Source: a virus. From it: DNA of 12,485 bases. The translations under genes were made by a program, and so were the position numbers. Positions within the stretch are counted from its first letter, which is position 1, and every line of letters begins with the position of its first letter. Positions 5,332-9,270 of this stretch are shown in pieces. Below the pieces are notes generated by a model that saw only the letters and a program-made list of their open reading frames with translations, did no database searches and was not told the origin of the DNA. The stretch lies in UHGV virus genome UHGV-0140160; one strand, 5' to 3'.

Positions 5332-8300
5332 TTAATCCTCCAGTAATTTGTCAAGAGATGGGTCATTGATAGTCGTGCTGGCACGCTGACGAGGTTGTGG
5401 TTGTGATGTGTTCACAATTTTGTCCTGATCGCCTTTGCGATTGTCTTTGCTTACGCCAAGAATCTCTTTGAGAACGGAATAAACGTTCTCCAGTGCTTTC
5501 AACATAGCCGGATCGTTATTTGCGGTATCTGTTGTTAGCATCTGCCCTATTCCGCTTCGTGCGAGGTCCGTGACGGTTGGTAGCTGAGGAGGCATTGCAA
5601 GGAACGGTTCTTTAGCAGCCACGCCCGAAGCAAACAGGCTTTGATTGATTGTGCCAGTCGTGCCCCTGATCGTATCCGCCGTTTTCTGTATGCCACCATT
5701 CAGCCAGCCGCCAACACTTCTTGTTAACGGACTAATAGCGCGAGCAACATCGGTATTCTGTCCAGAGGACTGCAATACAAAGTCATTTAACATTCCGGTG
5801 CTATCAATACCGCCCACAAGTCGCGAGAGGTTATCTCCAACGGCGGGGAGGACGGCGGAGCCTACCTGGTTAAGCCCTGACACAGTTGAATCAAATAGCG
5901 AGCCAAAGAAGCCCCTGTCCTCACCTTCAACCACCTTGTAGCCGTTGTCGTAAATCTGCACACCCGCCGGTGTCGATGTGGCACGCTTCTCGCTGATGGT
6001 TGCCGGACTCTCCGGAAGCAGGTCAATGGTTTCTGTATCGCGGTTAACGTTACGCTTTTGCTGTATAGCCGTAGTGATATCGGCGACCTGTTCCGCCTTC
6101 TGGAAACTAAAGTTTTTGCCCGTTGCTCTGGATATTTTTTCAACAAGAAACTTATCCAATTGCTTGGCTTTTGCTGCTAACGAGGACATCTCTTCCGGAG
6201 AACTGACAGGGCCGAGATTTAGCCCCATATTGGGATCTCCCCCAACTATCCCGGCGATGTCCCCCCCAGCACCGTCTGCACTCATTAACCGCTCCGTCAA
6301 TCCGTCTGCGGCGGAAGAGTTGCCACTAGCTTTCGCGTGGCTGATTGCCAGTGCATTTTCCTGTTGTGGAGTTTTTGGCGCTGGGATAGCTGTCGGCGCT
6401 GAGTCCGCCATAGCCTGGCTGATTGCCAGTGCATTTTTTTGTTGAGCCGCCTTCGGTTTTTTAGCTGCCTGTGCGTGTTGAACGACGTCAGTAGGGGTAG
6501 GCATTACAGCCTGGGCTACGCTTGACGCAGGAATAGCAGAAGATGAGCCGTTGGCGTATTTGACTTTGCTACCGACACTGTATTGGGAGTTGCGAGCGAT
6601 TAGAGGACCGCCCTTTTCCTTCTGGATTTTATTAATGTGTTCCAGCGTTTCATCATTGAATTGCCCTTCCCAACGCCCAGTTTTAGTGTTGAATGAACCA
6701 AGAGCTGTTTTGATGAAATTGTTGTTAACCGCCGGGTTACCCCCCTCCTTCGTCGCAATAGCGCGAACAAGGTGCGTCATAACTTCAGGGTTGCTAACGT
6801 CTATTTTATCGTTGGGGGATACCCCTAGATATTTGCTGACGTTTTCAATGTACTGATTGGTGTTGTTCTCTGTTGGTGGTGCCCATTTTGAAATGATGCT
6901 GGATACTGTTTGCAGCTTCTGATGCCCGGCGGCAGCACTTGTACCGTTGTAATAACTCGATACCTGGTTTGCCAATGCCCGAATCCCTTCTTCGGGCGTA
7001 TTAAACCGCGCAAAACGCTGTTCGCCTTTCGCGTTCGGCGCTTCCAGTACCGCCCCCTCCTGATTTGCAAAAACCAGGTTCCCCAAGTTGTTATTCCGGT
7101 AATTCCTGTTTTTGGCGTTGCTTCCGCCTATATTCAGATCCGCAGCAATAGTGTTTGTGGCAGGAGCATTAAATTCAGTTGGAGAAGTATACCCGTGCTC
7201 ACCAACTCCATCCTCACCATTGCGCCCACCTTGTAGCTGTCGCCCTAAATCATTAATTGCGGTTACTGTCTGCTTAGTGCCATCCTCGACCGCTTTCTTG
7301 ACCTGTGCAGTTCCTTCGCTGTTTGATGAGAACGATTCTTTCAGGCTGCTGAATACATTTTTCGTCGTGTCTATAGAACTATTTATGCCACGAGCAATAT
7401 CTCCGGTATCAAAATTCTGAAGTTTTTCACCAGCCCCTTCAAAGCCTAACGCAGAAATCCCTTTACCTATCAGGTTGGTTGCGCCAGACACTAAGCCGCC
7501 CATATCAAGCACATTAGCTGTTGCGTAAGCCGATTTTTGCTGTGTGGTCACAGCATCATCACTTAAGCCAAAAGCTACCTTTTGCGCCTCTGTATCAGAG
7601 TAACCGTCTATAGCATCGTATCCAGCCATAGCGATATTACCGATTATGGGGATTCCTCTGACGCCAGCCCTTACGGCTGCGCCACCGGCAGCTTTGAGAG
7701 CCACTTTTCCAGCTTCTTTTTTCGCGATGTTTTCACCAGTGGCAACGGCAACCTTACCCGTCTCCTTTCTGGTAAGGCTTTCCCCAGCGGAAGTTGCCGC
7801 TTTACCAGCATCTTTCCCTGCCACTCCACCAGCCGCTGTTTTGGCTACGCTTTCTTCAGTGGGCTTACCTGCTCTGGTTTTAACTGATGATTTATCACCC
7901 GATGATTTTGGTGAGTTACTACCTTCGTTCCCACCAGCTTTTTTTGCCCGGTTTTTTTCCTCGCCCGCGCTGTTGTTTTTGCCTGGCTGAGTTTTTTTCC
8001 CCTCTTTGCCTTCCTGATTCCTGCCCGTCTCAGTAGGTTTGCTGATGTTTTTTCCCTTCTTGCCCTTGTTTTCTTTACTGTCTCCAGTGCGGCTCGTGTT
8101 TCCACCACGTGCACTGCCACGACCGCGTGTAGGGGATATTCTGGTACGTAATCTGCCACCGCCGAAGAGGTCACTCAGTTTTAGTCCGCTCTCCTGCGAC
8201 TTACGTAGCTTCCGGATCTCTTCGGATACAGTTTCTAACTCATCAATTATCTGGCTGTCGTTGCGTTGAAGAACTTTCGTTTGTTCTTCGATCGCACGTA

Positions 8301-9270
8301 CAGATTTTTCTTTAACGGCTTCAGTAAATGCCTTTGCTGAACCGGGCGCGTTATCTGGAGTCTTCCTTTCAATGTCAGGTGCCGGGTAAGTAATGGCGGG
8401 GGCTTTTGCGACCACCGGTGCGCCAGCCGCCTTGTCGTTGCCATTATCTATCCATTCTTTCAATGATTTAGCCTTACCAGTAATCTCGCGGCTGATATCA
8501 AATACGCCCCGTGCTGCCATCCATAGTGGACCACCAGCCCCTACCCCGGCAGCATCTGTTACAGCTCCATCGTCGGCTTTCCCTGAACCATCAACCCCCA
8601 TAATGGAACCGAGTTTTCGCAGGAACCCAACCTGTAGTTTTGCCTGTGCGCGTAGCTCATTCTGACGTGCGAGATCCTCGTTTTTTTTCTGAGAGGCAAA
8701 TCGTCCGTTGCTATCCCGTAACGGTGCACCAGAGGTGCTCTGGCTTTCTCTAACTGGTTGTTCTTGCCTTGCAGACTGAATGTCAGGTGTGAGCGCCCGA
8801 ATGCGCTCAGGTGATGACTTTGTGGCCTTGTCTTCAGCCAGCAGTGTAGTTTTTGATTCCGAATAAGCGCTGCGGTGATCTGCTGCTGCTTTTTGCGGAT
8901 TATCTATCTCACTAGTGTTGTTCAGACGTAATCTCTGTTTCCTGGCAGGGAGTCGGTCCTCATATGGCCCCTGTGTGAAACTGTTGCGCTGCGTCCCTGT
9001 TTTCTCAGTTCGGGCCAGGCGACGACTTACGCGTCCTTGTGGTGCGTCGCTGGTATCAGGATTGCGTCCGTAAGACTCAAGTGCTTTTTTTATTTCTGAA
9101 AGCGCAGCTAGCTCTTTTGCGTTTGCCGTTTGTATTGCGTCGATTATCGCTATTCGGTCTTTTTTATCGTTCAAAATAACCTCACTTACATCGGCGGTGA
9201 TCACCCCGTTTTTTTGGCGTGGGCTTTGTATTTCTCTTCCAGAGCTTTTTCCATATGGAGTGCCCGCCAC
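5332..9270 (-). CDS. Giant tail protein, 1312 aa; tape-measure / P1 Sit-like (structural injection protein)
   Basis: Single 3.9-kb frame with GTG start at 9270 (no obvious SD, so the true start is uncertain). Contains a long Gly/Lys/Ala-rich basic low-complexity tract (about 7620-8200) with short internal repeats, a compositionally normal island (about 6560-7120; NRNYRNNNLGNLVFANQEG...FARFNTPEEGIRALANQVSSYYNG), and a perfect 22-bp direct repeat (6338-6359 and 6416-6437) encoding QQ(K/E)NALAIS. Position immediately upstream of baseplate genes fits a tape-measure-type protein. Confidence 0.8.
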   Translation of the reverse strand: MAGTPYGKSSGREIQSPRQKNGVITADVSEVILNDKKDRIAIIDAIQTANAKELAALSEIKKALESYGRNPDTSDAPQGRVSRRLARTEKTGTQRNSFTQGPYEDRLPARKQRLRLNNTSEIDNPQKAAADHRSAYSESKTTLLAEDKATKSSPERIRALTPDIQSARQEQPVRESQSTSGAPLRDSNGRFASQKKNEDLARQNELRAQAKLQVGFLRKLGSIMGVDGSGKADDGAVTDAAGVGAGGPLWMAARGVFDISREITGKAKSLKEWIDNGNDKAAGAPVVAKAPAITYPAPDIERKTPDNAPGSAKAFTEAVKEKSVRAIEEQTKVLQRNDSQIIDELETVSEEIRKLRKSQESGLKLSDLFGGGRLRTRISPTRGRGSARGGNTSRTGDSKENKGKKGKNISKPTETGRNQEGKEGKKTQPGKNNSAGEEKNRAKKAGGNEGSNSPKSSGDKSSVKTRAGKPTEESVAKTAAGGVAGKDAGKAATSAGESLTRKETGKVAVATGENIAKKEAGKVALKAAGGAAVRAGVRGIPIIGNIAMAGYDAIDGYSDTEAQKVAFGLSDDAVTTQQKSAYATANVLDMGGLVSGATNLIGKGISALGFEGAGEKLQNFDTGDIARGINSSIDTTKNVFSSLKESFSSNSEGTAQVKKAVEDGTKQTVTAINDLGRQLQGGRNGEDGVGEHGYTSPTEFNAPATNTIAADLNIGGSNAKNRNYRNNNLGNLVFANQEGAVLEAPNAKGEQRFARFNTPEEGIRALANQVSSYYNGTSAAAGHQKLQTVSSIISKWAPPTENNTNQYIENVSKYLGVSPNDKIDVSNPEVMTHLVRAIATKEGGNPAVNNNFIKTALGSFNTKTGRWEGQFNDETLEHINKIQKEKGGPLIARNSQYSVGSKVKYANGSSSAIPASSVAQAVMPTPTDVVQHAQAAKKPKAAQQKNALAISQAMADSAPTAIPAPKTPQQENALAISHAKASGNSSAADGLTERLMSADGAGGDIAGIVGGDPNMGLNLGPVSSPEEMSSLAAKAKQLDKFLVEKISRATGKNFSFQKAEQVADITTAIQQKRNVNRDTETIDLLPESPATISEKRATSTPAGVQIYDNGYKVVEGEDRGFFGSLFDSTVSGLNQVGSAVLPAVGDNLSRLVGGIDSTGMLNDFVLQSSGQNTDVARAISPLTRSVGGWLNGGIQKTADTIRGTTGTINQSLFASGVAAKEPFLAMPPQLPTVTDLARSGIGQMLTTDTANNDPAMLKALENVYSVLKEILGVSKDNRKGDQDKIVNTSQPQPRQRASTTINDPSLDKLLED

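Follow-up and report, generated by a model that had tools for sequence, protein, structure and literature searches.

The window, a stretch of 12,485 nucleotides from the virus genome UHGV-0140160, carries on its minus strand an open reading frame at positions 5332–9270, for which the original prediction had claimed a giant, tape-measure-like tail protein related to P1 Sit. The frame is present as claimed, with 1312 codons from a GTG start, and sequence comparisons bear out the relationship. Its product is 56% identical over the full length to gp40 of Escherichia phage D6 ("similar to P1 gene sit") and matches phrog_7182, "tail injection transglycosylase", at 1965 bits; similarity to P1-type Sit extends over aa 512–661 (45% identity, E = 2e-30) and aa 42–369 (23% identity, E = 6e-10) and reaches the C-terminus (E = 0.01). 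Membership of the Sit family thus draws on homology outside the lytic domain, present both in these P1-type blocks and in the phrog_7182 match. The neighboring genes encode PmgB-like, PmgA-like (phrog_1896), baseplate BplA, gene 16 and R homologues, and their PHROG assignments, compared with annotated D6 and P1-like loci, revealed that the order pmgB-sit-pmgA-bplA-16-R is kept as in P1 and D6. Phage-plasmids of ~90 kb from E. coli and E. marmotae are 92–94% identical to the window, databases hold protein homologues of up to 91% identity, and the exact protein is present in ENA. These comparisons support the assignment of the frame as the Sit counterpart of the D6 lineage, in a D6-like (P1-related) E. 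coli phage-plasmid.

The maximal frame probably overstates the protein. No Shine-Dalgarno sequence was found upstream of GTG 9270, and the database gene call on the same contig (P0131) starts at GTG 9174, giving 1280 aa. A further candidate, TTG 9144 (1270 aa), has a GAGG sequence 5 nt ahead of it and corresponds in the alignment to Met1 of P1 Sit. Either GTG 9174 or TTG 9144 is therefore more likely to be the start than GTG 9270. We propose a protein whose modules would follow one another as N-terminal region, disordered basic tract, Gly-rich module, glycosidase domain, Ala/Pro/Gln-rich repeats and C-terminal region. With residues numbered from GTG 9270, the features are:

5332..9270, minus strand: sit homologue, maximal open reading frame, 1312 codons from GTG 9270, stop codon at 5332–5334
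8176..9144, minus strand: N-terminal region, aa 43–365, partly helical, weakly similar to P1 Sit (23% identity, E = 6e-10)
7651..8175, minus strand: polycationic low-complexity tract, aa 366–540, 71% G/K/A/S/T/R, predicted disordered
7276..7650, minus strand: Gly-rich, weakly hydrophobic helical module, aa 541–665, conserved with P1-type Sit
7120..7275, minus strand: linker from the module to the lytic domain, aa 666–717, low pLDDT (residues 1–42 of the island model)
6721..7119, minus strand: predicted Enc34-type (PHA02564) lysozyme-like catalytic domain, aa 718–850, with an RNNNxGN motif at aa 724–731
6883..6885, minus strand: codon of Trp796, aligned with Enc34 Trp79 (W97 of the island), nearly invariant in 67 homologues
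6850..6852, minus strand: codon of Tyr807, aligned with Enc34 Tyr95 (Y108 of the island), invariant
6745..6747, minus strand: codon of Glu842, aligned with the catalytic Glu131 of Enc34 (E143 of the island), invariant
6556..6720, minus strand: C-terminal extension of the lytic domain (helix, beta-hairpin, helix), aa 851–905, conserved in D6-type Sit
6295..6450, minus strand: two-copy Ala/Pro/Gln-rich unit with a 26-aa period (...QQKNALAISQA... / ...QQENALAISHA...), a direct repeat in the DNA
5335..6270, minus strand: C-terminal region, aa 1001–1312, from sequence comparison with D6-type and P1 Sit

The N-terminal region carries the invariant motif GVGAGGPLWMAARG; its helices come from a full-length model of low confidence. 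Conservation with P1-type Sit is highest in the Gly-rich module (the 45% block at aa 512–661). Of all 19-mers in the protein, the two most hydrophobic lie in this module, with Kyte-Doolittle values of 1.16 and 1.02, below transmembrane level. Within the phage collection, the module was found in P1/D6-like phages and Cronobacter phage JK004 only. Relative to the closest plasmid, aa 541–717 form a recombination patch. Further downstream, the QQxNALAISxA unit occurs in two copies at aa 943–992 (motif at aa 943 and 969), encoded by a direct repeat at 6335–6366 and 6413–6444 with a spacing of 78 nt; the closest relative, EC361, has one copy, seen as a 26-aa gap, and many D6-type relatives instead carry a 25-aa version of the unit, in 1–7 copies, ~100 residues further on. 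The extreme C-terminus (...SQPQP...INDPSLD...) is kept in D6-type Sit, with weak conservation in P1 Sit as well.

Nucleotides 6560–7120, previously singled out as a compositionally normal island that might be a different cell-wall-acting domain, encode aa 717–904 and fit a conserved domain almost exactly: this segment is 90–99% identical to relatives whose flanks there are only 17–60% identical. A phmmer search against PDB aligned aa 719–847 with residues 5–137 of 7q47_A, the endolysin of Hafnia phage Enc34 (7Q47; E = 6.1e-16), and a profile of D6-type Sit matched the Enc34 catalytic domain at E = 6.6e-16. W796, Y807 and E842 align with chain residues W80, Y96 and E132; the chain is numbered with an offset of one. 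Across 67 homologues of 27–39% identity, E842 and Y807 are invariant and W796 is conserved in at least 90%. An AlphaFold model of the island built on these 67 sequences has core blocks with pLDDT of 77–94 and matches the all-helical 7Q47 fold (Foldseek E = 8e-8, probability 1.00); the RNNNxGN region was modeled at low confidence (pLDDT <50 for island residues 1–42). The C-terminal extension is 62–82% identical to D6, with pLDDT of 69–86 over island residues ~150–190. The island has the lowest dN/dS in the gene, 0.092 against EC361 and 0.028 against D6, showing strong purifying selection. Muralytic activity of the Enc34 domain on Gram-negative peptidoglycan and the roles of its catalytic residues have been described (PMC8943055). 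These results support the island as a predicted glycosidase domain acting on peptidoglycan, of the Enc34-endolysin (PHA02564) type and with a conserved catalytic Trp/Tyr/Glu set, so that the guess of a different cell-wall-acting domain proved apt. Following the reasoning of the Enc34 authors, Glu842 would probably support N-acetylglucosaminidase-like hydrolysis and not a lytic transglycosylase reaction, and the database name "transglycosylase" is probably imprecise. For M4Lys, a relative in the Enc34 family, both glucosaminidase and endopeptidase activities have been reported (PMC8943055).

The null hypothesis attached to the original prediction, that neither a domain hit nor a predicted fold would emerge and that the island is a structural tape-measure segment of normal composition, is highly improbable. 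Pfam and NCBIfam gave no match for the island and its enzymatic role is a predicted one; nonetheless, the homology and fold match are specific to an enzyme of demonstrated muralytic activity, all three catalytic residues are kept under the strongest constraint in the gene, and this domain is also found in endolysins as well as in many virion proteins. The orthology with P1 Sit and the names of relatives ("tail injection transglycosylase" or simply "transglycosylase") would fit an SLT/GH23 lytic transglycosylase of canonical type that has diverged past recognition, and a distant shared origin of the Enc34 fold with GH23 and GH73 has been proposed by the Enc34 authors (PMC8943055). There is also a local resemblance between the helix bearing the catalytic Glu and the SLT motif in P1 Sit (AIATKEGGNPA versus AIAATESGGNPYA), although the hhalign comparison was non-significant (probability 0.3%, E = 0.21). 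However, Pfam at E ≤ 1 returned no family for any of three proteins (the window protein, the EC361 homologue and D6 gp40), whereas a P1-type Sit, as positive control, yielded SLT (PF01464) at aa 748–857 with 95.5 bits, in agreement with the earlier statement that no canonical SLT motif could be recognized. A GH23 fold with the catalytic Glu on the N-terminal helix of the domain was not found in the island; the catalytic-Glu helix of the Enc34 fold is permuted relative to GH23/GH73, and the family is predicted to be a glucosaminidase-type hydrolase (PMC8943055). We thus regard a diverged SLT domain as improbable. Since D6-type Sit lacks SLT and P1-type Sit has it further downstream (the lytic domain begins 57 aa past the conserved module here and ~225 aa past it in P1 Sit), the lysin differs in both type and position: on sequence comparison, the predicted Enc34-type domain replaces the SLT transglycosylase of P1 in D6-type Sit.

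D6 gp40 and the "transglycosylases" of D6-like phage-plasmids belong to the same family as the window protein, with the same module order, an identical neighborhood and a lytic domain 90–97% identical, but the basic tract of D6 is 141 aa long instead of 175 aa and 20–40% identical. P1 Sit shares the position in the tail/baseplate operon and the Gly-rich module, is less similar towards both termini, and likewise has a basic low-complexity stretch ahead of the module and a muralytic domain (predicted in the window protein) embedded in the C-terminal half; it differs in its canonical SLT domain and in a basic tract about half as long. Enc34 ORF39 is an endolysin of 26 kDa from the lysis cassette whose C-terminus forms a transmembrane domain, whereas the window protein, a virion protein of ~1300 aa, harbors the catalytic domain in its interior; there the domain carries a C-terminal extension of 40–55 aa and presumably acts from outside at infection. 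An Enc34-type domain is also fused to a very large ejected virion protein (~1295 aa) in the gp16-like core proteins of T7 relatives, Gp29 of phage E1004 (PDB 9vvp) and the Kayfunavirus GA2A "internal virion protein with endolysin domain"; these come from podoviruses, have the domain at their N-terminus and show no detectable homology to the window protein outside it (a second stretch was non-significant). With an SLT domain at the corresponding place in T7 gp16, the same exchange of SLT for an Enc34-type domain would have occurred twice, in virion proteins unrelated to each other. Among siphoviruses, the tape measures of phrog_2276 and of Pantoea phage PdC23 end in the same Enc34-type domain. 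In T5 Pb2 and mycobacteriophage TM4 Tmp, a ruler protein brings a peptidoglycan-degrading domain into the envelope (PMC9024508), the same overall logic as presumed for Sit, with other catalytic folds and in siphoviruses. The protein is therefore of a kind already known, its island is a known though non-canonical lysin type, and the finding is largely ordinary.

The basic tract had been described as almost entirely G/K/A/S/T/R with short repeats. Its composition is indeed extreme, but "almost entirely" overstates it: nt 7620–8200 (aa 357–551) comprise 68% G/K/A/S/T/R, or 81% including E and N, compared with 51% for the whole protein. This segment has a pI of 10.45 and accounts for +22 of the protein's net charge of +23. 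Within aa 366–540, 39 K+R against 17 D+E give a net charge of +22, and hydrophobic residues make up 10%. Because Shannon entropy (3.48 bits, against 3.80–4.02 in every 175-aa window outside the tract) and charge (outside windows range from −10 to +11) both lie beyond all outside windows, the tract genuinely stands out in composition. Both GKVAVATGE and GKVALKAAG occur (aa 505–513 and 521–529), yet they belong to one imperfect two-copy repeat of 16 aa with 8 of 16 positions identical. Tandem Repeats Finder reported no repeats in the whole gene, and no in-frame DNA repeats were found within the tract; its low complexity is compositional, not repetitive. By its charge and hydropathy, the tract plots with disordered sequences (H 0.377, boundary 0.458), and it is without secondary structure in the low-confidence full-length model.

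The earlier remark that the tract is unusual even for tape measures is unsupported: the comparison covered D6-type and P1-type Sit, and a region equivalent to the tract is polycationic in every one examined. Its net charge stays at +20 to +25 across 45 distinct variants of 141–175 aa, a constancy that rests on about four independent lineages, and the P1-type equivalent carries +17 in 91 aa. We infer that the function of the tract most likely depends on its bulk charge and its flexibility and not on a specific fold. Tail-tube lumens are usually electronegative (PMC8718954), and candidate partners would be, speculatively, such a lumen, the DNA end, or anionic envelope components near the weakly hydrophobic module. 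The main competing reading is a tolerated, fast-evolving filler or spacer whose charge has no function, in which length alone or nothing matters and purine-rich drift sets the composition. Identity of 20–40% with many indels between lineages, lengths from 91 to 175 aa, dN/dS above that of the conserved domains and the lack of a family match (PHROG families other than the Sit family start at aa 468 or later) all fit such a filler, and part of the charge constancy may come from a codon bias towards purines in the tract (66% of its coding strand). However, charge is held while length, K+R (33–41) and D+E (9–19) shift; dN/dS of 0.31–0.34 is relaxed, not neutral, far from ~1; and the tract is found in all Sit examined of both types. 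We consider filler possible, but lean against it.

As a whole, the protein is with good confidence best explained as a D6-lineage Sit, a modular protein with an Enc34-type domain, presumed to serve contractile-tailed P1-like phage-plasmids both as tape measure and as an injection protein that opens the cell wall. P1 Sit is associated with the virion and has, on indirect grounds, been given the role of tape measure (PMC9024508); the P1 cryo-EM study lists it under the same role, its density in the center of the baseplate being unresolved (PMC12810830). The length of 1270–1312 aa is appropriate for this role; Pfam tape-measure families gave no match for the window protein, and the full-length model (mean pLDDT 29, uninformative) places about one-third of residues in scattered helices, without a classical long helix. 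Alternatively, the protein could be an internal or "core" protein that is ejected, with a function like that of T7 gp16 and with the tract as a DNA- or envelope-binding element. In favor of this reading are the missing long helix in the low-confidence model, Sit being unresolved in P1 cryo-EM (PMC12810830), some P1-like records labeling sit "internal (core) protein" or "protein inside capsid D", and the Enc34-type domain at the N-terminus of the gp16-like Gp29 and of the GA2A protein. Yet the gene lies amid tail and baseplate genes, adjoining a candidate tape-measure chaperone (pmgB); Sit is the sole P1 protein of suitable length (PMC9024508); low-resolution density in the baseplate center is attributed to it (PMC12810830); and the "capsid D" labels resemble automated transfers. 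A core protein that is not a tape measure is thus quite unlikely. As an injection protein, Sit would exit the tail lumen upon sheath contraction, and its lytic domain may then locally cut peptidoglycan glycan strands, opening a passage for tube and DNA.

A bolder suggestion, which we hold to be rather doubtful, is that the disordered tract of +20 to +25 and the 25-aa unit are functional tuning elements, electrostatic and ruler-like, respectively, and not filler. The tract would serve as an electrostatic device that grips the electronegative tube lumen or the DNA end, or engages the anionic envelope on ejection. At 1.5 Å per residue, the 25-aa unit would span 37.5 Å, compared with 38–39 Å for tail-tube rings, so that each unit might step the ruler by about one ring. 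Between otherwise similar plasmids, the 25-aa Ala/Pro/Gln-rich unit varies from 0 to 7 copies; if the suggestion were true, this copy number would produce a natural polymorphism of tail length.

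The reading frame and the repeat unit within it lie as follows.

5332..9270, minus strand: sit open reading frame, 1312 codons when read from GTG
6295-6450 (aa 941-992), within sit: two-copy Ala/Pro/Gln-rich unit carrying QQ(K/E)NALAIS(Q/H)A, with a 26-aa period

Along its full length, the encoded protein shares 56% identity with gp40 of Escherichia phage D6 (annotated "similar to P1 gene sit"), and it matches phrog_7182, "tail injection transglycosylase", with 1965 bits. The minus-strand gene order (PmgB-like, sit, PmgA-like (phrog_1896), baseplate BplA, gene 16-like, R-like), with a Rep gene on the strand opposite to the tail genes, agrees with annotated D6 and with the P1-like locus around sit. 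These observations place the protein among the Sit-type, presumed tape measure/injection proteins, in line with the original prediction of a tail protein related to P1 Sit. Similarity to P1-type Sit is confined to three blocks: aa 512-661 (45% identity, E=2e-30), aa 42-369 (23% identity, E=6e-10) and the C-terminal 80 residues (E=0.01). At the DNA level, D6, a P1-related phage-plasmid, is the sole relative of the window among isolated phages, and ~90 kb plasmids of E. coli and E. marmotae align with it in pieces at 92-94% identity. P1 Sit itself is virion-associated and was assigned as the tape measure from its size and helicity (PMC9024508); cryo-EM of P1 gives it the name of tape measure protein without resolving it (PMC12810830).

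The true start of sit is uncertain among three codons. GTG 9270 lacks a Shine-Dalgarno sequence; GTG 9174 is the start in a public gene call on the same DNA (P0131, a 1280-aa database homologue, 100% identical) and likewise in the closest annotated plasmid homologue; TTG 9144 follows a GAGG placed 5 nt ahead of it and lines up with Met1 of P1 Sit. The choice has no effect on the two segments discussed below. A 17-codon out-of-frame ORF (MEKALEEKYKAHAKKTG, then stop) finishes with a TGA overlapping GTG 9174 (GGGGTGATC), right after an A7 run.

We then considered the compositionally normal island encoded at 6560-7120 (aa 717-904), for which a different cell-wall-acting domain had been suggested as one possibility. 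Domain HMM searching and structure prediction were the checks proposed for it. Scanning the entire protein with Pfam and NCBIfam returned zero matches. AlphaFold modeling of the island gave a confident helical core (blocks of pLDDT 77-94). After the blank Pfam and NCBIfam scans, the domain was recognized by searching PDB sequences and PHROGs. In the PDB, aa 719-847 matched the Hafnia phage Enc34 endolysin in its catalytic domain (7q47_A) with E=6.1e-16, and Gp29 of phage E1004 (9vvp) matched the island through its N-terminus with E=5e-12; the same stretch occurs in PHROG families annotated as endolysin, tape measure protein and head protein. In the Enc34 domain, which has demonstrated muralytic activity in isolation, Glu131 is catalytic and Trp79 and Tyr95 are important (PMC8943055). 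Their island equivalents are E842, W796 and Y807, and in an alignment of 67 homologues (27-39% identity, seeded from phage records) the E842 and Y807 positions are invariant and the W796 position is at least 90% conserved. Of all parts of the gene, the island has the lowest dN/dS, at 0.092 relative to the closest plasmid and 0.028 relative to D6. On the strength of the PDB match, the fold model, the catalytic residues and the selection signal, the island is identified as an Enc34-type (PHA02564) lysozyme-like catalytic domain, predicted to cleave peptidoglycan, as the suggestion had anticipated, and very probably active. The family is very large: counting one representative per 50%-identity cluster gives 17,833 members at E<=1e-3. 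It is frequently embedded in proteins of 500-1300 aa; among the island matches listed, 0 of 120 homologues carried a precomputed Pfam domain. Unlike single-domain endolysins of the Enc34 type, the island continues into a C-terminal extension (6556-6720, aa 851-905) modeled as helix, beta-hairpin and helix (pLDDT ~70-86), in which these elements run to ~aa 890 and which is kept in D6-type Sit.

The lysin is thus of a different type from that of P1. The SLT domain PF01464 scores 95.5 bits in P1-type Sit (aa 748-857), whereas the window protein, D6 gp40 and the closest plasmid homologue give no SLT match even at E<=1, which bears out the original failure to recognize a canonical SLT motif. Position differs as well: after the Gly-rich module shared with P1-type Sit, the lytic domain starts 57 residues on in the window protein versus ~225 in P1 Sit. 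Given the differing lysin type and spacing, we therefore regard D6-type and P1 Sit as two lineages of one protein family carrying different lysins at different positions in the chain. Membership of the island in the SLT family was considered through a profile-profile comparison with P1 Sit, which returned only a 19-column match over the catalytic-Glu helix (AIATKEGGNPA in the island, AIAATESGGNPYA in P1 Sit); the match is non-significant and provides no evidence for SLT. It would be compatible with a remote, permuted kinship to GH23/GH73, a relationship proposed for the Enc34 fold by its authors (PMC8943055). The same authors argue that the family is a putative glucosaminidase-type hydrolase (PMC8943055); D6-type Sit therefore probably carries the name "transglycosylase" as a legacy of P1 and not on its own merits.

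This correction of annotation carries the main weight of the finding. By analogy with P1 Sit, this protein bears the "transglycosylase" label in hundreds of phage-plasmids of the D6-like kind from E. coli, Salmonella, Shigella and Klebsiella, whereas the Enc34-type domain is a predicted hydrolase that the searched copies of Pfam and NCBIfam do not contain. D6-type versus P1 Sit is also a clear case of lysin exchange between orthologous virion proteins. T7 gp16 presumably carries an SLT domain at its N-terminus, where E1004 and GA2A carry, in their gp16-like proteins, an Enc34-type domain; if so, the same exchange has taken place in an unrelated virion protein. Public databases already contain the window protein, and structural and biochemical work has characterized the domain family. 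What goes somewhat beyond current annotation is the lysin exchange relative to P1 with the likely misnaming to which it has led, together with a charge-conserved disordered tract and a repeat-number polymorphism. The latter two offer cheap handles on a tape measure/injection protein, a modest gain and not a new kind of system.

The tract in question, encoded at 7620-8200 (aa 357-551), had been described as an extremely basic low-complexity segment with short repeats, almost entirely G/K/A/S/T/R. Low complexity is real: the core (aa 366-540) has an entropy of 3.48 bits, whereas all 175-aa windows outside the tract fall at 3.80-4.02 bits with net charges of -10 to +11. Residues G/K/A/S/T/R are enriched at 68% versus 51% in the whole protein, which falls short of "almost entirely", and the short repeats reduce to a single imperfect two-copy 16-aa repeat; neither Tandem Repeats Finder nor direct-repeat searches turned up DNA-level repeats in the tract. 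Net charge is +22 of the protein's +23, with a pI of 10.45. Hydrophobic residues make up 10% of the tract, and the charge-hydropathy boundary puts it well among disordered sequences. The full-length model, a low-confidence prediction (aa 113-1312, 23 sequences, mean pLDDT 29), assigns the tract no secondary structure and only weakly indicates this and the places where helices may lie.

Across 45 distinct D6-type variants, the tract ranges from 141 to 175 aa, with many indels and 20-40% identity between lineages. Its net charge stays at +20 to +25 throughout, although K+R (33-41) and D+E (9-19) vary; the equivalent in P1-type Sit spans 91 aa with +17. A dN/dS of 0.31-0.34 indicates relaxed but not neutral evolution. 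We read this as a polycationic segment, probably disordered and selected for its bulk charge over its sequence. Because tail-tube lumens are generally electronegative (PMC8718954), the tract could plausibly provide an electrostatic hold inside the tail tube; binding of DNA ends or of anionic envelope components would be equally possible. The protein's two stretches of highest hydrophobicity come directly after the tract, both below transmembrane level. A classical membrane-spanning segment is unsupported, because the highest 19-mer Kyte-Doolittle value in the protein is only 1.16.

Repeat number varies downstream of the island. The two-copy unit reflects a DNA direct repeat (6335-6366 / 6413-6444, 78 nt), and the closest plasmid has one copy of the QQxNALAISxA unit versus two in the window. 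In many other D6-type Sit proteins (database homologues P0135, P0155, P0178 and others), a 25-aa version (AAPAPKTPQQEQALAISQAMAGFSS) occurs in tandem 1-7 times, at a site corresponding to ~aa 1085 of the window protein, unlike the window's two-copy site. The tandem copy number accounts for protein lengths in 25-aa steps (1275, 1300, ... 1425 aa). If Sit is a ruler, each unit may, speculatively, correspond to one tail-tube ring, as 25 residues at 1.5 Å span 37.5 Å, near one ring of 38-39 Å.

The Gly-rich module shared with P1-type Sit (aa 541-665) was confined, in the phage collection searched, to P1/D6-like phages and Cronobacter phage JK004, and has no PDB or Pfam relative; a profile search with the Sit alignment likewise found nothing in the PDB for the N-terminal region, the tract, this module or the C-terminus. 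A recombination patch in sit covers 7120-7650 (aa 541-717): relative to the closest plasmid homologue, EC361 (L001), dS is 1.0-1.35 with 77-83% amino acid identity, whereas the flanks show dS 0.03-0.16 and 89-99% identity.

For eight antisense ORFs inside sit (90-155 aa), PHROG gave no match, and they were taken as spurious. An 83-aa ORF (10316-10567, minus strand) without a family match overlaps the start of a replication initiator gene (10461-11354, plus strand), which is wedged between tail-morphogenesis genes, as is D6 gene 42. The initiator gene matches phrog_775 and carries a RepB/RepA-like annotation in D6 and plasmid records. Window positions 1-2100 adjoin the tail-fibre region and show patchy similarity to related plasmids, and G+C falls from ~0.54 (1-1000) to ~0.43 (1500-2250); the sequence of 1-2100 suggests a mosaic tail-fibre or host-range segment.
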